Virus record (IMG/VR): IMGVR_UViG_2579778670_000004
Strand: one strand, 5' to 3'
Origin: a virus
Taxonomy: Duplodnaviria > Heunggongvirae > Uroviricota > Caudoviricetes
DNA length: 44,004 nt
The translations under genes were made by a program, and so were the position numbers. Of the stretch, positions 20,171-40,666 are shown piece by piece; position 1 is the stretch's first letter, and each line of letters starts with the position of its first letter. The notes under the pieces are model-generated. The model did not search any database. It had not been told where the DNA came from and saw only the letters and a list, made by a program, of their open reading frames with translations.

Positions 20171-20650
20171 CTACGCTTCTGAGATAGATTTCTCAGCATT
20201 CACCAATGGAAGTGATTGTGGAACATCCGTTTGACCTGCTGGCCAGCGGTAGCCTGTTACGCGGGAACGAGGAAAAGCTTTGATATTTACTTCATCTGCC
20301 TGGTTGCCCCCCAAAATCATTAAATCCCCGGCGGCATTTTTCCCGACAACAAAGCCGACGTGACCACCGCCAGACCGAGACAGAATAGCAATGCATCCAT
20401 AGGCGGGTTCCTTCAGTTCATTACCCCAATCGAGATAAGAATTCGCAGACTCAAAACGCGTTGAGCGAATACCCGCACGTTCCAGCATTGCCCCGGTGAA
20501 AGCAGCGCACCACGGTGTTTCGTCATCCTTAATGCCGCCGCGTTTGATATCTTTCCAGTACTGCACAATTTCTGCAGCATGTTGCTTCCCTTTCATTTCC
20601 CGAATGCCGAGGTTTTTTCGAGCCTCGATTAGCCATTTAGGATCCGTCAT
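20171..20650 (-). CDS. Endolysin-like peptidoglycan hydrolase (Cys-His peptidase type, CHAP/NlpC-P60-like)
   Basis: 159-aa ORF after two membrane-protein genes; candidate catalytic Cys (WCAAF) and His (GGHVGF). Confidence 0.5.
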   Translation of the reverse strand: MTDPKWLIEARKNLGIREMKGKQHAAEIVQYWKDIKRGGIKDDETPWCAAFTGAMLERAGIRSTRFESANSYLDWGNELKEPAYGCIAILSRSGGGHVGFVVGKNAAGDLMILGGNQADEVNIKAFPRSRVTGYRWPAGQTDVPQSLPLVNAEKSISEA

Positions 20651-20922
20651 TACCTGTCTCCTGTTATTTTTGAAATATTCCCTCGTGCCCGCCAGACAGC
20701 AATACAGATGGTGAGGTTGAGAAAGAACTCTGCGGGATCAACCTGCGTATATTTCCCGTAAAAAATTCGTAGGGCTATCCACGCAGCAGACAGAATCGCG
20801 AGGTAAGCAGTTAGTGAGATGAAAAAACGATAGCGGCCTGTTTTTTGAAAAAACATCAACCGTAGTGCCAACATCAGACAAATAATTGCATTGGCATTGA
20901 TGAGGACAGAGTGCAGGGTCAT
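20650..20922 (-). CDS. Holin-like small membrane protein
   Basis: 90-aa ORF with about three hydrophobic helices, between holin and endolysin. Confidence 0.45.
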   Translation of the reverse strand: MTLHSVLINANAIICLMLALRLMFFQKTGRYRFFISLTAYLAILSAAWIALRIFYGKYTQVDPAEFFLNLTICIAVWRARGNISKITGDR

Positions 20923-21305
20923 TATTTCATCCCCTTATCTGATTTCCATAAACGAGCTTGTGACATGATCCGCAACAGTGATGTAACGCTGATTACTGAT
21001 GCAACCAGTGCACCAATGGCGGGAGAGACTTTTACTGTTACGGGAGGGTTCAGGTGACTCAGCACCGCGTTCAGAATACCGGTAATGATGGCTGACGCTG
21101 TCTCAGCGCAATACACACCGCCAACAAACGAAATGAGTGCGAAAATAACCTGCTTCCAGAATCGATGCTGCCCGGACGACAACACATAGAGAGCTGCGCC
21201 TGCCAGCGCACAGATCATCACTGCAGGTGTTGCCTCAGGAAATAACGCAGCAAACGTCACCCCCGCCGAGCCAGCAGCAACGCCAGCGGTTAGAGGTTCA
21301 GACAT
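20922..21305 (-). CDS. Holin (putative)
   Basis: Multi-TM small protein; start set at the internal ATG 21303..21305, which has an AGGA Shine-Dalgarno, rather than the longer track ORF to 21386. Confidence 0.45.
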   Translation of the reverse strand: MSEPLTAGVAAGSAGVTFAALFPEATPAVMICALAGAALYVLSSGQHRFWKQVIFALISFVGGVYCAETASAIITGILNAVLSHLNPPVTVKVSPAIGALVASVISVTSLLRIMSQARLWKSDKGMK

Positions 21306-22089: not shown

Positions 22090-22382
22090 CAGATAAACTC
22101 CTCATCGCGCCAGATAGCCAGTGTTCTGAAAACTCCCTCAGCGTGCATCAACAACAATGAGTCGTGCTCGTAATCCGTTTTTGTACGTCCGTCGATGGCA
22201 TCGTGACACGCACTGCAGGCGATAGCGCCCTGCATATCGTGAGGTTTGATGGCTGTGCCGCACGTTCCGGCGAGACGATAATGAGCCAGTACGCTGGTTT
22301 CAGGATTGTGATTGCACACACCGGGGATACGCACAGTACAAGCGCGACTGCGTGCAGCTTTTCTCAGGTCGATTTTTTTCAT
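22089..22382 (-). CDS. YbcO-like DUF1364 protein (putative nuclease)
   Basis: 97-aa ORF; motifs RIPGVCN.NPETSVLAH and IACSACHD.ID closely match E. coli prophage YbcO as remembered. Confidence 0.65.
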   Translation of the reverse strand: MKKIDLRKAARSRACTVRIPGVCNHNPETSVLAHYRLAGTCGTAIKPHDMQGAIACSACHDAIDGRTKTDYEHDSLLLMHAEGVFRTLAIWRDEEFI

Positions 22383-24268: not shown

Positions 24269-24502
24269 ATGGGTACGTTAGGCAACCAGCCGTGCAGAAG
24301 TCGTTATGAGTTCGATGATTTTAATTTAGCCAATCGAGCTGCGGCTCTTACTAAGTTAGCAAAAGAAACTGGTGTATCGGTGGATACCTTAATCAAACTT
24401 GAAATTGCTATGCAACTGAATCGGCTCAACTCCATCCTTATCGAAAACGGTGACAAGATGGACGAGAATCTGGCAGGTATTGGCGAGATACTGCAGAAGT
24501 GA
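24269..24502 (+). CDS. Small protein, possible degenerate HTH regulator
   Basis: 77-aa ORF with GAGGA Shine-Dalgarno; segment LAKETGVSVDTLIKLE resembles an XRE-type helix-turn-helix; followed by hairpin CCCCTC-TTCT-GAGGGG. Confidence 0.4.
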   Translation: MGTLGNQPCRSRYEFDDFNLANRAAALTKLAKETGVSVDTLIKLEIAMQLNRLNSILIENGDKMDENLAGIGEILQK

Positions 24503-24809
24503 GAGTAGCCCCTCTTCTGAGGGGTTGCACATTTAAAATATTAAGGGCGGTCTTCTTCACGTACACAGTCACCTGGTCGAATCGTTCACGCATACTGAGT
24601 ACAAAAAATCTCAACGATAAGATCAGGTTAGACCTGTATTTTCCAGAAACATATAGACGCCTAAAAAAACACTAAACTCATGATTATCATGTATGTTTTT
24701 ACTGGAAACATTGAACCATCCACAATACAGCGTAAAAAGCAAGCAATTCACAAGATTTTAAAGTGATTTATCTGGAAGACTTTACTACTAACAGTTAATA
24801 TCGTACCAG

Positions 24810-24828
24810 AAGTGCAGAATTTGCACTT
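24810..24828. promoter_or_regulatory. 19-bp perfect palindrome AAGTGCAGAATTTGCACTT (candidate operator)
   Basis: Perfect inverted repeat about 75 bp upstream of the metallopeptidase start codon. Confidence 0.4.
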
Positions 24829-24900
24829 TTACAGGAATGTGGTACGGAACATGCTGTCTATATTTCAACCAATAATCGTAATGCAGTAACTGGAGGAGCT

Positions 24901-25389
24901 ATGGCTACCAACCCAAGAGAGCACGCCCGGCGAGTGCTGGACACGTTCTGGTGCGGGCGTGGTTTCCCTGTTGATCCAGCGAAAATTGCTCACGACATGG
25001 GATTAGATGTTTTTATTACCGATCTTCCTGGGAAAGTTTCTGGCGCACTGATTAAACAAAAAGATCAAGATCCAGCGATCTTTCTAAACAGTGATGACAA
25101 CAAAGTTCGTCAACGTTTTTCATGTGGGCATGAGTTGGGGCATTACATCGCCCGGCAAGCATCGCATAGCGATGAATATGAGTACGTTGATTTACGTGGC
25201 GAAACCGCAAGCGCCGGAACGCATCCTGATGAAATTTTTGCAAACAAGTTCGCAGCAGAACTTCTGATGCCGGTAGATGAGGTCAGAAAACTGCACGCTG
25301 ACGGTCAACCAAGTTATATAATGGCGCATTATTTTGGCGTATCTGACGATGCGATGACTTATCGTTTAAAGAACTTGAGGTTGGGGTAA
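24901..25389 (+). CDS. ImmA/IrrE-family zinc metallopeptidase (HExxH)
   Basis: 162-aa ORF with HELGHY motif and overall ImmA/IrrE (COG2856-type) pattern; GGAGGA Shine-Dalgarno. Confidence 0.7.
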   Translation: MATNPREHARRVLDTFWCGRGFPVDPAKIAHDMGLDVFITDLPGKVSGALIKQKDQDPAIFLNSDDNKVRQRFSCGHELGHYIARQASHSDEYEYVDLRGETASAGTHPDEIFANKFAAELLMPVDEVRKLHADGQPSYIMAHYFGVSDDAMTYRLKNLRLG

Positions 25390-25398
25390 CGCTTTAAA

Positions 25399-26004
25399 AT
25401 GCCATCGGATGACGATTTTAACAGCCGTTTCAAACAGGAAGTAGCACGCAGACTGAAGGATTCCCTCAACCTACACCGTCAGTTAGCAGAAGAGGTTGAG
25501 CCGGAGGACGATGAAACTCCGGTTCAGTCTCCTGACGAAGCTTCACCTCAGCCAAAGGTTTCGCACGCCCCCAAAAAAACGGCTGTCCGTATTCGCGGAA
25601 TAGCCAGAAAAAGAGCTGCCGAAGCTCGCAAAATGGCTGTAGCTGCGTCTAGCAAAAGAATTCCAACTGCTACACCCTCTCAACAAGTCACCCGTACTGA
25701 GAGTAAAATCTTGACCGAGTTCACATCTGTGAAACAGGTGAATTCACTTGATACCGAGCATGAGCGCAAACAACTCAACAACAAAGATTTTGAAGCAGAA
25801 ATCGCTCTAAAAAAACGATACGGGAAATGGTTCCTGATTATCCTTGCTTTCCAACTTCTGATAATGAATGGTGTATTTATTGCCGACGGCGCAGGTAAGC
25901 TGGAATTTGAGGATTTAACACTACAGTTGTACATGGGCGGTACTTTGACAGAGGTATTCGGCCTCGTGCTGGTCGTGACAAAATACCTTTTTAAACGCAA
26001 GTAA
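25399..26004 (+). CDS. Membrane protein with charged N-terminal region and two C-terminal transmembrane helices
   Basis: 201-aa ORF 9 bp after the peptidase stop; about 140 aa Lys/Arg/Glu-rich, then FLIILAFQLLIMNGVFIA and TLTEVFGLVLVVTKYLF helices. Confidence 0.55.
   Translation: MPSDDDFNSRFKQEVARRLKDSLNLHRQLAEEVEPEDDETPVQSPDEASPQPKVSHAPKKTAVRIRGIARKRAAEARKMAVAASSKRIPTATPSQQVTRTESKILTEFTSVKQVNSLDTEHERKQLNNKDFEAEIALKKRYGKWFLIILAFQLLIMNGVFIADGAGKLEFEDLTLQLYMGGTLTEVFGLVLVVTKYLFKRK
25933..26004 (+). repeat. Direct repeat copy 1 (3' end of membrane-protein gene)
   Basis: About 72 bp, roughly 90 percent identical to 29354..29425. Confidence 0.7.
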
Positions 26005-26248
26005 CTCTCTCGGTCCAACAGTCTTTCGAAGGCCCTGATCAAAGGGCCTTGATAAATTAGCAGTGCGTTGAAAACAGATAGTTATTCCCATCAGTTCCAA
26101 CGTAATACACATCAAAAAAATCACCATTCTTTTGCTCTAACGTCAACACCTACCCTTAAAAAAATAATTCTCCAAGAATGAGAAAGTTATTGTGTGTATT
26201 AGATAAGATATGAGCTGACACATCTATGGCGTGGAGCCAAATTTAATA

Positions 26249-26282
26249 TGACAGTCCGCTCTGTGCCATAAGCGGACTGTCA
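26249..26282. other. Perfect 11-bp inverted repeat (TGACAGTCCGC / GCGGACTGTCA) with 12-nt loop; possible terminator or protein-binding site
   Basis: Seen directly in sequence, in the intergenic space downstream of both convergent genes. Confidence 0.4.
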
Positions 26283-26466
26283 ATAAACAGATTCACTTGT
26301 AAATCTTGAAGCTATACATATTTACTTTCAATGATAAATAAAAGAACTATCCAAAAATCACTGAGAGCATATTTTAACTAACCCTCCGCTACTATTAACA
26401 TAAATTTCACCCAACCATAATTAAATTGATACATATAGCAACTTACCTTGATACGAATCATCTGGG

Positions 26467-27165
26467 TTATATTTTTCCATATTTTTTTCCGTCAAATCGA
26501 ATCATGCCAGGATCAAGAAAATTAATTAAATCGATTAACGCGTGCTGTATTCTGATTAGCCTTTCTTTATAAATTCCGATATCTCTTGTCATATTTATCA
26601 CTTCATTGTTTAAATCTAAAAAAAATGGCTCATTGATAAAGCAATTTTCCTTTGTGAAACTGCCGTAACCTATGCAATCAAATCCAGTATCTGTTGATAT
26701 CAGCATCTTTTCTGCAATAGCTCTCTGCTCTCCTATGAAAAACATAAAATACTGACCAAAGACGTCTGTTTGGATTAATGAGTTAATATTGTTCTGTAAT
26801 CTAATAAACTCCCTCATTTTTTTATTTTTTTCTAGGCTAAGGTATTGAATGTCTATGCGGGCAGCTTCTGTCCATGCAAAAAACTGGGAAAAAAGAAAAA
26901 CAGTATTGTTGATAACATAATCTTGTTGGCGCTTATTCCCATTATGATAAAACTCTTCAATGAACCCCAATTCTAATATATTATAAATACGGCTTTGTAA
27001 GTCTGAAGCTGAGCGAATTAACGGTTCAATATAGTACTGATGTTTTCTCCTTACATCCAGTGATTCATTGAGCTTGTTTATTCTATTCTGATTATAAGTA
27101 GATATAGCAATAGAGATTATAGCTATTGCACCACTAATAAAGCTTGAAATTAATGCCGTACCCAT
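26467..27165 (-). CDS. Hypothetical protein with N-terminal transmembrane anchor (unknown function, AT-rich cargo)
   Basis: 232-aa ORF; N-terminal hydrophobic helix (ALISSFISGAIAIISIAIS); low-GC codon usage unlike the phage backbone. Confidence 0.5.
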   Translation of the reverse strand: MGTALISSFISGAIAIISIAISTYNQNRINKLNESLDVRRKHQYYIEPLIRSASDLQSRIYNILELGFIEEFYHNGNKRQQDYVINNTVFLFSQFFAWTEAARIDIQYLSLEKNKKMREFIRLQNNINSLIQTDVFGQYFMFFIGEQRAIAEKMLISTDTGFDCIGYGSFTKENCFINEPFFLDLNNEVINMTRDIGIYKERLIRIQHALIDLINFLDPGMIRFDGKKYGKI

Positions 27166-28352
27166 CTAAAAGTCCTTTGATTCTTGCTTGGTTAACAAAA
27201 TGACATAATTTTATTTAATGCCATAACAACTTAACAATATATCATAATATGATTATTATGGTGTAGCTTGTCGCATCTACGCTCCATTACAAACAGATGT
27301 AAGATATAACCTATATGTTTTAGCCAGCAAATTCGAAAGCATTCAAAGTAGTCTCATCGAACTCTCGAAACCCTATGTCTTCGGGTATAAAATATTTAAA
27401 TCCATTTGCATAATATCGACTCATGTTTATTATATTCTCCCCATTCACCATTAAGATTTGACATTATTTTCAACAATCGGTTATTGCAAGATTGAAATAT
27501 ATTTTTACTTGACACAATATTCCATGTAGCCCAGCGATTCGACTTACCCCCAACTATACGGACAATCTAAATTAAATCGATGATTTTTTGATACATTCTC
27601 CTCTCTCCATTACTTTATGTTTTTGTTCCCCAAAAATACCTTGCTCTCTAAAAAATAATTGTTCTTTAAGTTCAAAATCGAGATCTACATGAGCGTTAGA
27701 TACAAAGCTAATATGTTGAAATGTCTTTCCCCCCCCATAACGGCATTGTTATCTAAACTATGTTACACAAATATAATATTACCCTTTCAACGTAATCCAA
27801 GAATAAGATTAATGCCATTATATATATCATAAATATGATATTTTGTATATTTTTATCATTTAGCCTTGATTGTACTAGGTGTACTCTCAACGAAGTAGGG
27901 AAAGTCTGTTCCTCGCTCACAGCTGCCCTTCAGTAAGCGAAAAAATGCCTACTCGGTGCCATATACAGCCATTGTTATTAACAGCAGGGAATAATTCAAA
28001 ACTGAAATTAAATATCTACCTTTTACAGTAGAAATAGTTCCTCCAGGACACTATCCATTGCCGGGCACAATCACTCGGGGTATAACGATATAAAATATGT
28101 TCATGATAGTGCAGGTTCGTATATTAAGTTCAGCAGCGAAAACATGCCTTACAGGTTTCCGGTTTTGGGAGCGTCGTTACAGGATCCTGCGCATACCGTT
28201 CCCATCTGTTGAATTAAAGGTTTCACAGCCTTTGCCGATATCACCTTTTACCTTACCTGTGATGCGTTCAGTGCTCAGCGTTGTTTACTGTAGCTCTCGG
28301 GACTGATTACAGACCGCGTCTTAAAAACCAATCCTTACTCTAAAGGGAATTC

Positions 28353-29450: not shown

Positions 29451-30269
29451 TCAAAATGCTGAATTAGCAACGGATATAGCCGACTTTTTCCCCATTACCA
29501 TCAATTTATCCAGTGTCATACTTCGCAGATTGTCGCTGTGGATCACCAGATACCCTGCCCGCTCAGCGATCTCTTTGAAAGCGTCAAAGGTCATCAGATG
29601 TTCGCCTTTGGCAACATGGCGCATCCCGGTCACTTTTCCATTTTTGATAGTGGTGATAAAAGAAAAATCTGGAATGGTTGGGTGATTTTCATCGAGTAGC
29701 AGGCAGTGGATGTATTCAATCGCCTCTAACATTTGCGTCTGTGACAGTTGTTCTATGTGAGAGACGGCGAAGCGTTGATGAATCATGGTGTAGGCATCGG
29801 GATACATCATGCCTTTCTTGCCGACCAGTATATTAACGGCATCACGCAAGGGAGTACGGTCATCGGTAGTTGTACTCCGCCTCTCTGGACGCTGGCTAAA
29901 ATAACAATCTTCCAGCTTTTCGAAAACTTCCCAGGCCTGTTCTGTTTCCAGCATTTTGGCATGGCGAGCTGCGCCGCGTTCTGTCCAGAGAATGAGGGAT
30001 CGGGTATGTTTAGCAACTGACTGACTATCTGTCAGTCTGTTTTTGAAGTCGCGTAATTCATTACCTTCCAGCTTAAAAAAATGCTTTCCTACGACAAATC
30101 TGGCGATGTTGCGCTTGAAGTTTTGCTGGATACCATTTACTTCCGTGCCATACAAACTGGCAAGCAATTCAGTAGTGATGACGGGAAGTTGGTTATGATG
30201 TAGCGGAGAAAGGGATTCCGCAGATATTTGGACTGTCATCGCAGTGGCCTCACTTAGTGTTTTTTTCAT
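29451..30269 (-). CDS. Phage antirepressor (ORF6N-type N-terminal domain, KilAC-type C-terminal domain)
   Basis: N-terminal pattern LPVITTELLASLYG...NFKRNIARFVVGKHFFKLEG matches antirepressor domains as remembered. Start moved to the ATG at 30267..30269; the track ORF begins at a TTG at 30287. Confidence 0.6.
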   Translation of the reverse strand: MKKTLSEATAMTVQISAESLSPLHHNQLPVITTELLASLYGTEVNGIQQNFKRNIARFVVGKHFFKLEGNELRDFKNRLTDSQSVAKHTRSLILWTERGAARHAKMLETEQAWEVFEKLEDCYFSQRPERRSTTTDDRTPLRDAVNILVGKKGMMYPDAYTMIHQRFAVSHIEQLSQTQMLEAIEYIHCLLLDENHPTIPDFSFITTIKNGKVTGMRHVAKGEHLMTFDAFKEIAERAGYLVIHSDNLRSMTLDKLMVMGKKSAISVANSAF

Positions 30270-30511
30270 CACCACCAGCGACGCCAATCATCTGGTGGTG
30301 AGCTGTGCAGGGTTGGCGTAACCGGCTAAGTGAACCCGGCGCTTCCACAGAAGCCCCCACACAGCCCACCATAATGCGAATGTGGCCGTGCCTAACACAT
30401 AAAAAAACCGCTAACGCGGCTATGCGTCACTTAGATATCCGGGACGCCAATCCCGGCAACCGATTTTGCGGCTGCGCGGAAACTATAGCCCCGGACTTTT
30501 TCTAAGTCAAT

Positions 30512-35406: not shown

Positions 35407-35835
35407 TTGTATCCTTACGGTATGAACACAAAAACGAAAAACATGGCTTTTGCTAGCCGACTACAACGGATTCTAAAAGACTTAGGCTGGTCTCAATCTG
35501 AGTTAGCTCGCCATATTGGGGTTACGGCTCAATCAGTTCAGGCATGGTGTAATGGGGTAACTCCAAGAAAAGATAAATTAGACAAGCTAGCAAAAGTGAC
35601 CGGATACCCTGTTCATTTTTTCTTCATGAATGAAGGGGAATATTTGGATGAATCCACACTACACCCGGGTAATTACAATCAAGAACTAACCCCGCAAGAA
35701 CAGGCTCTACTGCAACTATTCAGAGGACTGCCTGAGAGCGAAAAAAATAAATTAATCAATGAGCTAAAAGAAAAAAGAGAGCACTTCGATCTACTGCTAA
35801 AAGAACTACTTGAAGCCAAAAACCAGACAAAATAG
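35407..35835 (+). CDS. CI-like prophage repressor (XRE-family HTH, no S24 peptidase domain)
   Basis: 142-aa ORF; N-terminal HTH (LGWSQSELARHIGVTAQSVQAW); C-terminal short coiled-coil segment only. Confidence 0.6.
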   Translation: MYPYGMNTKTKNMAFASRLQRILKDLGWSQSELARHIGVTAQSVQAWCNGVTPRKDKLDKLAKVTGYPVHFFFMNEGEYLDESTLHPGNYNQELTPQEQALLQLFRGLPESEKNKLINELKEKREHFDLLLKELLEAKNQTK

Positions 35836-37196: not shown

Positions 37197-38151
37197 ATGA
37201 CCATTTTTAACGGCTTGTTAGAAGCGAAAAAAGGCGCGCTCAAAAACGGCGCGATCCCGGCGCTGGCCATCGCCATCGCCGCCCCTAACAAAAAAGTTGC
37301 CGAGAACATCATCATCGGCAAATTGTGGGAAGCCTACCCTGACCACGGCGACAACTATTTCAAACCTAAAATCTGGGAAGATGCCCCGGGCCAACCGCGC
37401 CCAGGCGTCGGTGAGTTTGATGAGACGTTTGCCACAGAACACAGTTTTGATGGCGAAAAATGGGTAGTTAACACTCCTGTTGATTCAGATTGCAGTTCAG
37501 CAGATATCTCACAGGTTAGCGACCTGATGAAACTGCCGGCTCGTGAACGATTCGCCGCCGTTCTGCTGTTCAGCCACGACGCCAACGAAGTCGACAGTGA
37601 ATTGCTTGTGCAGACGCGTGAATACCTGGAGATGCTCGATAACAGTGATACTGACAGTGAGGATGAGGTTGACGCGTTTAACCGCATCGTTCTTGATGCC
37701 ATGGTGGCGTGTAAGCCCATCGAGTACATGCATATTGCTGGATTGAATAATCTGGTACATGCAATTTTGGCAAGTTGCGATACCCAGGAACAAAACCCGA
37801 CCAGTTGGACTATCTCCAAATTTATAAAAAAATGGGTAGAGAATCCCGGTAAACGAGATGAAATGCTGCCGGAGGTAAAACCAGAAACAGCATCCGCACG
37901 TCCTTACAAACAGACTCACGCCACTCTGGATCGTGAAATTGCCTGCGCCCTGTTACCTGTTGCCCCGGAAAAAATCACCCCCAGCATCCTGAAAGCGGCA
38001 GACGAAATAATCAGTCAGGACAGGGAAGATTTTAAACGCTGGTCAATGGCCTTGCGCACAACGGATCAGATCCTTGCCTATGACCGCGCATCAGTATTCG
38101 GTGTTATTCAGAGCGCCCCCGCAAAAGACACGTACCACTTCCCACAATCCC
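37197..38151 (+). pseudogene. 5' part (codons 1-318) of a roughly 738-codon gene disrupted by IS911
   Basis: Reading frame runs into the IS left end at 38152; after removing the IS and one CCC target copy the frame continues into 39405..40666 without a stop. Confidence 0.6.
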
Positions 38152-38181
38152 TGAAGTGGTCAACAAAAACTGGCCACCGAG

Positions 38182-39329
<1,148 letters not shown>

Positions 39330-39404
39330 TATGGCACCTGTGTTGTTCTGAGGTGAGCATATCACCTCTGTTCAGGTGGCCAAATTCAGTAAACCACTTC
39401 ACCC

Positions 39405-40666
39405 TGCGCAGTCACATCGACAACTGGCTGCAAGCTAACGGGCAGCGTGATGCAAATGCTGTTGAAGAGAAGCCAAAGGAAGCAGCACCCAAGGATGATG
39501 TAAAAGTCACCAACCACGGCGGCGGACGATTCTCAATTGATGGGATGATGTCAGAAACACCCTCAAATCAGGGCGAAAAAAGCGAAGCTGCAAATGCTGG
39601 AGAACGTAGTTTGCAGCAGTTGCGTGAGCAGTTTGTCACGCCTCGCCATGTGTATGACGTACCTGAAAATAACGCCGTATCACAGAGGGAACCTGCAGCT
39701 ATTACCCTGGCAGAAGAGACTCCTCCACAAGAACAACTTAGCGAGCAGGTAAAGGATCTGGTGCAGAACGTTGACGCGCTGGTTGAGCGGATCCATGCCG
39801 AAGAGCACAAGCGGCAGAATGCAATCTCAGCTATCGAAACGGAGTTAAAGGACTCAGATGACACGGATAACCTGGCATTGTGGAAGAACGTATTCAAAAC
39901 CGATGAGCGCTTCACCAGTGCTTTCTCTCAGAATGGCGGCGGCACATCCATCAACGGCACTTATATAGCGATGAAAGCGACTCGCGAATTTGGGCCATTT
40001 GGTATTGGCTGGGGGGTAGAGGTGCTGGAGGAGCGCTTTGATAAAGGCGCACCAATAGTTCGCAAAAAACAGGTTGGTGAAAAAATAGAATGGGATCTGA
40101 TTCAAGACGGTGTTGGCGGGTACCTATGTGAAATGCACCACACCATGAAAGTGAGAGTCTGGTACATATTGAATGGGGTACGCGGTGAGTCCGAGGCTTA
40201 CGGATGCACACCTTATATCTACGACACTAAATACGGACCAACAAGCGACGGCGAAGCACCGAAGAAATCCTGGACGGATGCTGTTAAGAAAGCGCTATCC
40301 CCTCTCGGATTCAGCGCCGATATTTTCATGGGCCTGTACGACAATCCGGAATACCGCCAGAGGAATAAAGCTGAGTTTGATATCAAGAATGCCAGCGAGA
40401 ATGCGGAAGATGCTACCCGTCTGCGTAAGGAACTGGATGAGAAGCTTATCAACGTTGCCAATACGCTGGCCGCCGCGGTAACCGCCAACGAAGTAAACAA
40501 GGTATTTGGCCTCATCGCCCGCGAAGTGGATGTACACAGGAAAGCAGCGGAAACCAAAGGCGATAAAGAATATTCATCGTATCTGGGATCACGTCTGCGC
40601 CGTATCACCGACATTAAAACTGAACGCCTCGCCGCCCTTACCGCTGCACAGGAGCAAACAGCATGA
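39405..40666 (+). pseudogene. 3' part of the IS911-disrupted gene; contains a Rad52/Sak-like single-strand annealing domain
   Basis: Frame contiguous with 37197..38151 after IS excision. Motifs FGPFGIGWGVEV and KKSWTDAVKKALSPLGFSADIF resemble the conserved Rad52-family cores (FG..GW and K.A.TD..KRAL..FG) as remembered. Confidence 0.5.

Follow-up and report, generated by a model that had tools for sequence, protein, structure and literature searches.

A Peptidase Gene and a Two-Helix Membrane Protein Gene in an Escherichia coli Prophage Form a Probable Toxin–Antitoxin Pair Related to RosmerTA of Gordonia Phage Kita

Results

Genes of the Locus

The window analyzed in this work is a stretch of viral DNA with a length of 44,004 nucleotides (nt) from the IMG/VR record IMGVR_UViG_2579778670_000004, which corresponds to an Escherichia coli prophage located beside the tRNA-Leu/Cys/Gly genes and the pgsA-uvrC region. 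The prophage contains lambdoid early, nin and Q genes and the genes of a contractile tail. The subject of the study is a pair of adjacent genes encoding an ImmA/IrrE-type peptidase of 162 amino acids (aa) (24901–25389) and a membrane protein of 201 aa (25399–26004), together with a gene for a 77-aa protein upstream of them (24269–24502). All three open reading frames (ORFs) lie on the plus strand and were confirmed as delimited in an earlier sequence-only reading of this region, which had combined them into one stress-sensing module. The pair is located in an accessory stretch, with replication genes on one side and the nin/Q region on the other, and is oriented opposite to the surrounding prophage genes. 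The GC content of the locus is 41–47%, compared with approximately 50% in the prophage backbone.

Peptidase Gene

According to the Pfam analysis, the gene at 24901–25389 is an immA/rmrA-like gene whose product is a single-domain zinc peptidase of the M78 family (Peptidase_M78, E 7.7e-18), in agreement with its initial assignment to the ImmA/IrrE HExxH peptidases. The protein has neither a helix-turn-helix (HTH) domain nor a C-terminal sensor domain. The zinc-binding and catalytic motif HELGH (H77, E78, H81; 25129–25143) and the third zinc ligand E111 (25231–25233) are invariant in the 24 ImmA partners that were compared, which range from Proteobacteria to Actinobacteria, and the peptidase activity is thus under selection. 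A strong ribosome-binding site (GGAGGA) precedes the immA start by 5 nt. No LexA box was seen by eye upstream of the gene.

Among the PADLOC models, capP scored highest with the peptidase (2.4e-25), the alignment covering positions 3–151 of the 242 profile positions. The RmrA models match it with values down to 5.8e-12 at approximately positions 166–290 of profiles with a length of 357–400, and the NCBIfam spr1629 model also matches the peptidase domain. The sole relative with a solved structure found by sequence is CapP (PDB 7t5t, 291 aa), of which residues 79–152 were matched.

Membrane Protein Gene

The second gene of the pair (25399–26004) begins 9 nt after the immA stop codon, the distance already given in the sequence-only reading. 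Its 201-aa product belongs to no family in Pfam, NCBIfam or PADLOC, and PHROGs gave only phrog_5346, a group of unknown function. Accordingly, no holin or lysis family was matched in Pfam, PHROGs or NCBIfam. Below, it is treated as a predicted membrane-depolarizing toxin of the rmrT(D5) family on the basis of a family hidden Markov model (HMM) match.

The overall architecture proposed earlier, namely a long charged region followed by two C-terminal helices, was confirmed by alignments and by an AlphaFold2 model built from an alignment with 20 homologues (overall predicted local distance difference test (pLDDT) score of 60). In the alignment, conservation of the N-terminal helix (residues 4–32; 25408–25494; pLDDT 65–84) is confined to members from Enterobacterales, and this helix may serve for docking or recognition. 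It is followed by a charged, disordered and hypervariable linker (residues 34–118; 25498–25752; pLDDT <50) and a hairpin of two modeled helices (residues 119–164 and 172–199), in which the alignments place two transmembrane (TM) helices at about residues 144–163 and 173–196 (25828–25986). Among the homologues, approximately 90 C-terminal residues are strongly conserved, while the middle part is hypervariable; proteins of the family are 106–239 aa long, and the linker varies in both length and sequence. The polar residues Q152, N157 and E185 of the TM helices are invariant or nearly so throughout the family, and T182 in the TM region is invariant among the closer relatives. A Foldseek search with the model against viral structures gave nothing significant, the model itself being weak (pLDDT 60).

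By the positive-inside rule, the basic flanks (LKKRYGK and KYLFKRK) are predicted to lie in the cytoplasm and the acidic loop between the helices in the periplasm. The combination of basic flanks and acidic loop points to a hairpin with both termini inside, so that approximately 140 residues of the protein would be cytoplasmic and within reach of the peptidase. The conserved polar residues in both TM helices are consistent with an oligomeric pore.

A GC-rich hairpin (AAGGCCCT-N6-AGGGCCTT; 26029–26050) is located 25 nt past the stop codon. It has no T-run and was not flagged by the terminator scan; it likely marks the end of the transcription unit.

Linkage of the Two Genes

Homologous loci were collected from one genome per species and from viral contigs. 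Alignment A4 was used for the locus scan in place of the very diverse A3, whose divergence was too great for this purpose. Thirty loci contained the full gene of the membrane protein together with upstream sequence, and in all 30 a short ImmA gene without an HTH domain was located directly upstream on the same strand, at a distance of −23 to +11 nt. These loci belong to Escherichia, Leclercia, Buttiauxella, Thalassotalea, Gallibacterium, Microbulbifer, Desulfuromonas, a metagenome-assembled genome of Rhodococcus and many uncultured phages. Pairwise identities of the peptidases and of the membrane proteins co-vary across the loci (r = 0.87). Among 5,426 complete E. coli genomes, immA was found in 431 and the gene of the membrane protein likewise in 431; many of the carrier genomes are listed as O25:H4 or ST131. 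In total, the membrane protein family comprises 671 cluster representatives at E ≤ 1e-3 (182 at E ≤ 1e-10) and extends over Proteobacteria, Desulfuromonas and Actinobacteria.

In the reciprocal search, which started from the peptidase, the same family was present in 49 of 80 viral loci with a short ImmA. Most of the remaining loci contain, in the same downstream position, a different small ORF with two to three hydrophobic segments. These ORFs were not recruited by HMM iteration and were for this reason treated as different toxin families. As a whole, the unit consists of two genes, the peptidase and the two-TM protein.

Relationship to the RosmerTA System of Phage Kita

A tblastn search of phage genomes with the E. 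coli membrane protein itself gave no match, and Gordonia phage Kita was reached only through the Rhodococcus member of the family (locus L011), which identified gene 33 of Kita and of its relatives. Genes 32 and 33 of Kita overlap by 4 nt and encode a 178-aa metalloprotease and a 119-aa protein, namely, RmrA(D25) (YP_009301393) and RmrT(D5) (YP_009301394) of a RosmerTA system; both accessions were confirmed in the PMC10440598 supplement. The E. coli peptidase has 43% identity with RmrA(D25) over 157 aa (E 1e-41), and both proteins consist of the M78 domain alone. The HMM of the membrane protein family (149 sequences) matches RmrT(D5) with 42 bits (E 3e-9, Z = 1e6) and gave no decoy match among approximately 1,000 ORFs. 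In the hhalign comparison of a narrow profile of the family with RmrT(D5) (E 1.3e-4, probability 53%), N157 of the first and E185 of the second TM helix were aligned with identical residues of the Kita protein.

The Kita pair has been characterized experimentally. RmrT(D5) is a pore-forming toxin, the full-length protein being toxic by itself; alone, it halts transcription, translation and replication, depolarizes the membrane and admits Sytox Green (Ernits et al. 2023, PMC10440598). The peptidase RmrA(D25) neutralizes it incompletely, and the pair shields E. coli from a narrow set of BASEL myoviruses (PMC10440598). Thus, the effector that the sequence-only reading had coupled with the peptidase falls into the family of a depolarizing toxin from a phage-defence system.

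The E. coli pair resembles that of Kita in gene order and tight coupling (a 9-nt gap and a 4-nt overlap, respectively), in a single-domain M78 protein without HTH (162 and 178 aa), in the layout of the toxin (N-terminal part cytoplasmic, TM hairpin at the C-terminus), and in being carried by a temperate phage. It differs in the host phylum and in the size of the toxin, which in E. coli has 201 aa against 119 aa in Kita; the E. coli toxin additionally has the Enterobacterales-specific N-terminal helix and the disordered charged linker of approximately 85 residues. Taken together, the strict linkage, the intact catalytic site and the homology observed in this analysis make it probable that the two genes constitute a prophage-borne toxin–antitoxin (TA) or abortive-infection cassette of the RosmerTA kind, namely of its HTH-less D25/D5 subtype. 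The roles of the E. coli proteins are assigned by homology to Kita, the 162-aa peptidase being the predicted antitoxin.

The similarity with canonical RosmerTA (Millman et al. 2022) and with RipAB of Streptococcus pneumoniae (spr1630/spr1629) is more general. These are also two-gene TA systems, related to defence or stress, in which an antitoxin with an ImmA/M78 domain is combined with diverse toxins. The antitoxin of canonical RosmerTA has 360–400 aa and carries, besides the peptidase, an Xre HTH fused to it on the N-terminal side and further sequence, while the 162-aa E. coli protein is the peptidase core only; moreover, the canonical order is often toxin-first, whereas here the peptidase gene comes first. 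The canonical toxins are unrelated to the E. coli one, and RipA targets the sliding clamp. No existing PADLOC model of RmrT recognizes the E. coli toxin.

The sequence-only reading did not recognize the pair as a described system. Judging from its sequence relationships, it is RosmerTA of the phage Kita D25/D5 type, so that both the kind and the subtype have already been described. Not yet described, as far as the literature shows, are the members from E. coli and Enterobacterales, the wide extent of the toxin family and the architecture with a long linker; the E. coli accessions do not occur in the covered portions of the NetFlax supplement. The result provides a name and a testable function for two genes annotated as "ImmA/IrrE" and "hypothetical" in 431 of 5,426 complete E. 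coli genomes, and it indicates that RosmerTA of the Kita type reaches well beyond actinophages. Such annotation is explained by the fact that even the validated Kita pair yields capP as the first PADLOC model for RmrA, the RmrA models as the second, and no model for RmrT(D5). Since PADLOC 2.0 has no toxin model, the D25/D5 subtype escapes detection.

Several points weigh against the assignment to RosmerTA. The data on toxicity, depolarization, neutralization and defence all come from the Kita homologue, and for the E. coli pair the evidence is its sequence. The kinship of the toxin with RmrT(D5) is remote, with approximately 30% identity in the TM region and an hhalign probability of just 53%. 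PADLOC ranks the E. coli peptidase as capP above RmrA, and the toxin has no model. The promoter scan called no consensus site upstream of immA. The peptidase is devoid of the HTH typical of most RmrA proteins, and therefore autoregulation and sensing must differ. In addition, neutralization in the Kita pair is incomplete and AlphaFold was unable to model the Kita complex (PMC10440598), which leaves it unproven that the peptidase acts directly on the toxin.

Possible Mode of Action of the Pair

If the RosmerTA assignment is correct, the toxin would insert into the inner membrane by its C-terminal hairpin, with both ends in the cytoplasm, and could form an oligomeric pore through which the membrane potential is lost, as Q152, N157 and E185 suggest. 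In the lysogen, the translationally coupled upstream M78 peptidase would hold the toxin harmless, most likely by acting on its cytoplasmic N-terminal part through binding or cleavage. Infection by another phage would then upset this state, with the peptidase lost or inhibited or with expression shifted. As a result of pore formation, the cell would die or be arrested ahead of the replication of the invader, thereby protecting the lysogen population together with the resident prophage.

The sequence-only reading had considered a protease-gated abortive-infection system. The abortive-infection component of this proposal is supported by the membership of the effector in a defence-toxin family. 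The gating component is not, since the Kita toxin is toxic alone and is restrained by its peptidase rather than activated by it.

As a possible though doubtful variant of the RosmerTA mechanism, the peptidase may serve as a proteolytic antitoxin that continuously cuts the disordered linker, with the N-terminal helix of the toxin as the dock; the toxin would become armed when a phage blocks or outcompetes the protease. If true, this mode would differ both from classical type II binding and from the HTH-cleavage model for Rosmer-like systems. The lead of greatest value from this analysis is the question of how an M78 peptidase without HTH keeps a pore-former in check, and the pair native to E. 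coli is a convenient model for the restraint of a membrane toxin by such a peptidase.

77-aa Gene and Inverted Repeat Upstream of the Pair

The 77-aa gene (24269–24502, plus strand) has its own ribosome-binding site, is followed by a hairpin at 24509–24524 and ends 398 base pairs (bp) before immA. In the sequence-only reading it was the first gene of a three-gene module and encoded a possible HTH protein. Neither feature withstood the analysis. In Pfam, the protein gave only a hint of MerR (E 0.13), far below the cut-off, and no significant match to the PDB was found by fold or by sequence. 3D modeling using the AlphaFold2 program (pLDDT 82) shows one helix and one long helix instead of the tri-helical HTH. 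The gene is present in 418 complete E. coli genomes compared with 431 containing the pair. It is missing from all 23 other pair loci, including that of E. whittamii, where the pair is nearly identical, and a homologue with 53% identity was found in an unrelated prophage without the pair. The three-gene module was therefore rejected, and the 77-aa gene is regarded as an orphan outside the pair. Its product is almost confined to E. coli prophages; two parts of it are invariant, namely MGTLGNQ at the N-terminus and the core MQLNRLNSILIE.

The sole element of 19 bp, the inverted repeat AAGTGCA-GAATT-TGCACTT, is located at 24810–24828, 72 nt upstream of immA. It had been described as a perfect palindrome preceding the small gene; in fact, it consists of perfect 7-bp arms with a 5-bp spacer and follows the small gene, in the interval before immA. 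By chance, about two hyphenated repeats of this type would be expected within 2.4 kb; four were found. The repeat is conserved in E. whittamii only, being absent from Leclercia and Buttiauxella. A conserved operator was rejected, as only the ribosome-binding site is shared upstream of the pair in Escherichia, Leclercia and Buttiauxella. The repeat could be an operator, its significance being unproven.

These data bear on another explanation, in which the 77-aa protein would be a repressor cleaved by the peptidase after DNA damage or infection, thus switching on the membrane effector, by analogy with CapH/CapP, which regulate CBASS and further defence operons (Lau et al. 2022; PDB 7t5t). The M78 peptidase core is common to both systems, capP is the best PADLOC model, CapP is the only solved relative, and the imperfect inverted repeat is situated upstream of immA. 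Nevertheless, such a switch is hardly plausible. The peptidase spans only the N-terminal 150 of the 242 capP positions and lacks the C-terminal domain, and the same capP-first pattern is obtained for the validated RmrA of Kita. The 77-aa protein has no HTH fold in the model, and its gene is missing at every other locus and is found elsewhere without the pair. Besides, CapP acts with a partner HTH repressor gene and a regulated downstream defence operon, whereas the conserved partner of the E. coli peptidase is a membrane toxin co-transcribed with it, unlike the CapH/CapP layout.

Repressor and Antirepressor Genes of the Prophage

The repressor of the prophage is a 130-aa protein of the Xre type (35443–35835), which contains the HTH_3 domain only, without an S24 peptidase domain. 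A gene at 29451–30287 (minus strand) encodes, according to its domain match, an ORF6N-domain protein that is a candidate antirepressor. Three elements of the same strand were detected by Rfam upstream of it: a C4 antisense RNA directly adjacent to the gene (30291–30376), isrK (30401–30475) and an a1/b1 target (30436–30488). By sequence, the whole set looks like an antirepressor module of the P1 immI or Gifsy-1 isrK type, and it is probably the route by which the peptidase-less Xre repressor is inactivated.

The sequence-only reading had offered the peptidase itself as such a route. This corresponds to an induction switch of the ImmR/ImmA type, in which the peptidase cleaves the Xre repressor and the membrane protein is unrelated cargo. 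ImmR/ImmA of ICEBs1 and IrrE/DdrO of Deinococcus share with the E. coli protein the peptidase family and the HExxH motif with a downstream Glu. ImmA of ICEBs1 is likewise a small protein, comparable in size to the E. coli peptidase, and the prophage repressor is similar in size to ImmR. The presence of HTH_3 alone in the repressor and the intact active site of a bona fide M78 enzyme also fit this proposal. On the other hand, ImmA and IrrE adjoin the HTH repressor of element induction or damage response on which they act, whereas no repressor is linked to the E. coli pair: immA lies approximately 10 kb from the repressor gene and outside its operon. In addition, this peptidase clade is tied to the two-TM gene even where no prophage repressor exists (after sucCD and after pheT-ihfA), and the prophage owns a complete alternative route in the form of C4 RNA, isrK and the ORF6N antirepressor (29451–30488). 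An induction switch of this type is thus very unlikely.

Genomic Neighbourhoods of Related Pairs

The identities of neighbouring genes in the other loci were read from their sequences. The neighbours are heterogeneous and include Mu-like early and lysis genes, antirepressors, sucCD, pheT-ihfA, ParE/Phd-like and Panacea-like pairs, and a large DNA methyltransferase-like gene. Some pairs stand alone between housekeeping genes, and the pair also occurs outside prophages. Comparison of the neighbourhoods of the pair loci revealed no conserved HTH gene beside the pair. Together with the opposite orientation and lower GC content of the pair in the window and with the cargo in the corresponding slot of sister prophages, such a context is typical of TA and defence cargo.

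In a Mu-like prophage of Desulfuromonas (locus L010, 3784–4675, identical to L031), the pair is located between a mor-like gene and an amidase gene with a holin-like gene. This position could hint at a link with lysis but is also consistent with a moron slot.

The lysis hypothesis implies that the two-TM protein is an accessory of lysis or superinfection exclusion (holin-like, antiholin-like or Sie-like) and that the peptidase matures it or times its action. The small size of the protein, its C-terminal TM hairpin and the location of the pair just upstream of amidase and holin-like genes in L010 agree with it. Nonetheless, it is improbable, given that the database comparisons returned no holin or lysis family and the low-confidence model no fold match, and that the prophage has its own lysis cassette elsewhere (approximately 20171–21305) on the strand opposite to the pair. 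The occurrence of pairs outside prophages also argues against it, as does the Kita homologue, which acts as a TA pair and defends a heterologous host.

Remnants and Disruptions of the Toxin Gene

In the related prophages L033–L038, only the last 75–85 bp of the toxin gene are retained, with an amino acid identity of 89–92% (for example, 4001–4075 in L035 and 4001–4084 in L033). The cargo beside the remnant differs between these prophages. In L033 it consists of two genes, one DUF262-like and the other unknown (182 aa), and in L035 of the LprI and antirepressor genes. The remnant together with the varied cargo indicates that the slot behaves as a recombination hotspot for accessory and defence genes. 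This 3′ remnant probably explains the second match in most carrier genomes.

In strain AR_451 (locus L040, NZ_CP030337.1, 1720–2983), the insertion sequence (IS) element IS1 interrupts the toxin gene towards its 3′ end, while immA is intact. The remaining 171 aa of the toxin are devoid of the end of the second TM helix and of the C-terminal tail. This natural disruption, which affects the toxin and spares the peptidase, lends indirect support to the TA reading. An IS1 of equal size is present within the pair locus of strains S9, R10 and R13.

CRISPR Spacers and Other Accessory Elements

Type I-E CRISPR arrays of other E. coli strains contain 32-nt spacers identical to parts of immA (24965–24996) and of the toxin gene (25956–25987). 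The flanking protospacer-adjacent motif is ATG in the case of immA and AAG in that of the toxin gene. Approximately 10 genomes carry the immA spacer, and the spacer adjoining it matches the DUF1364 gene of the prophage (22117–22148, minus strand) with three mismatches.

Downstream of the pair, positions 26000–28200 of the window form a very AT-rich island (31–37% GC). It contains an ORF on the minus strand (26467–27165) encoding a 232-aa protein with an N-terminal TM helix, which has a weak match to the PADLOC RTasTM model (DRT-associated membrane protein, E 1.8e-5) and may be further defence-type cargo. This gene is followed by approximately 1.2 kb without a long ORF.

An IS3-family element was found at 38182–39365 on the minus strand (orfA, 39027–39365; orfB, 38182–39000). 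It interrupts a large early-region gene, the pieces of which are located at 37197–38306 and 39353–40666; the same gene is uninterrupted (738 aa) in strain SK1144.

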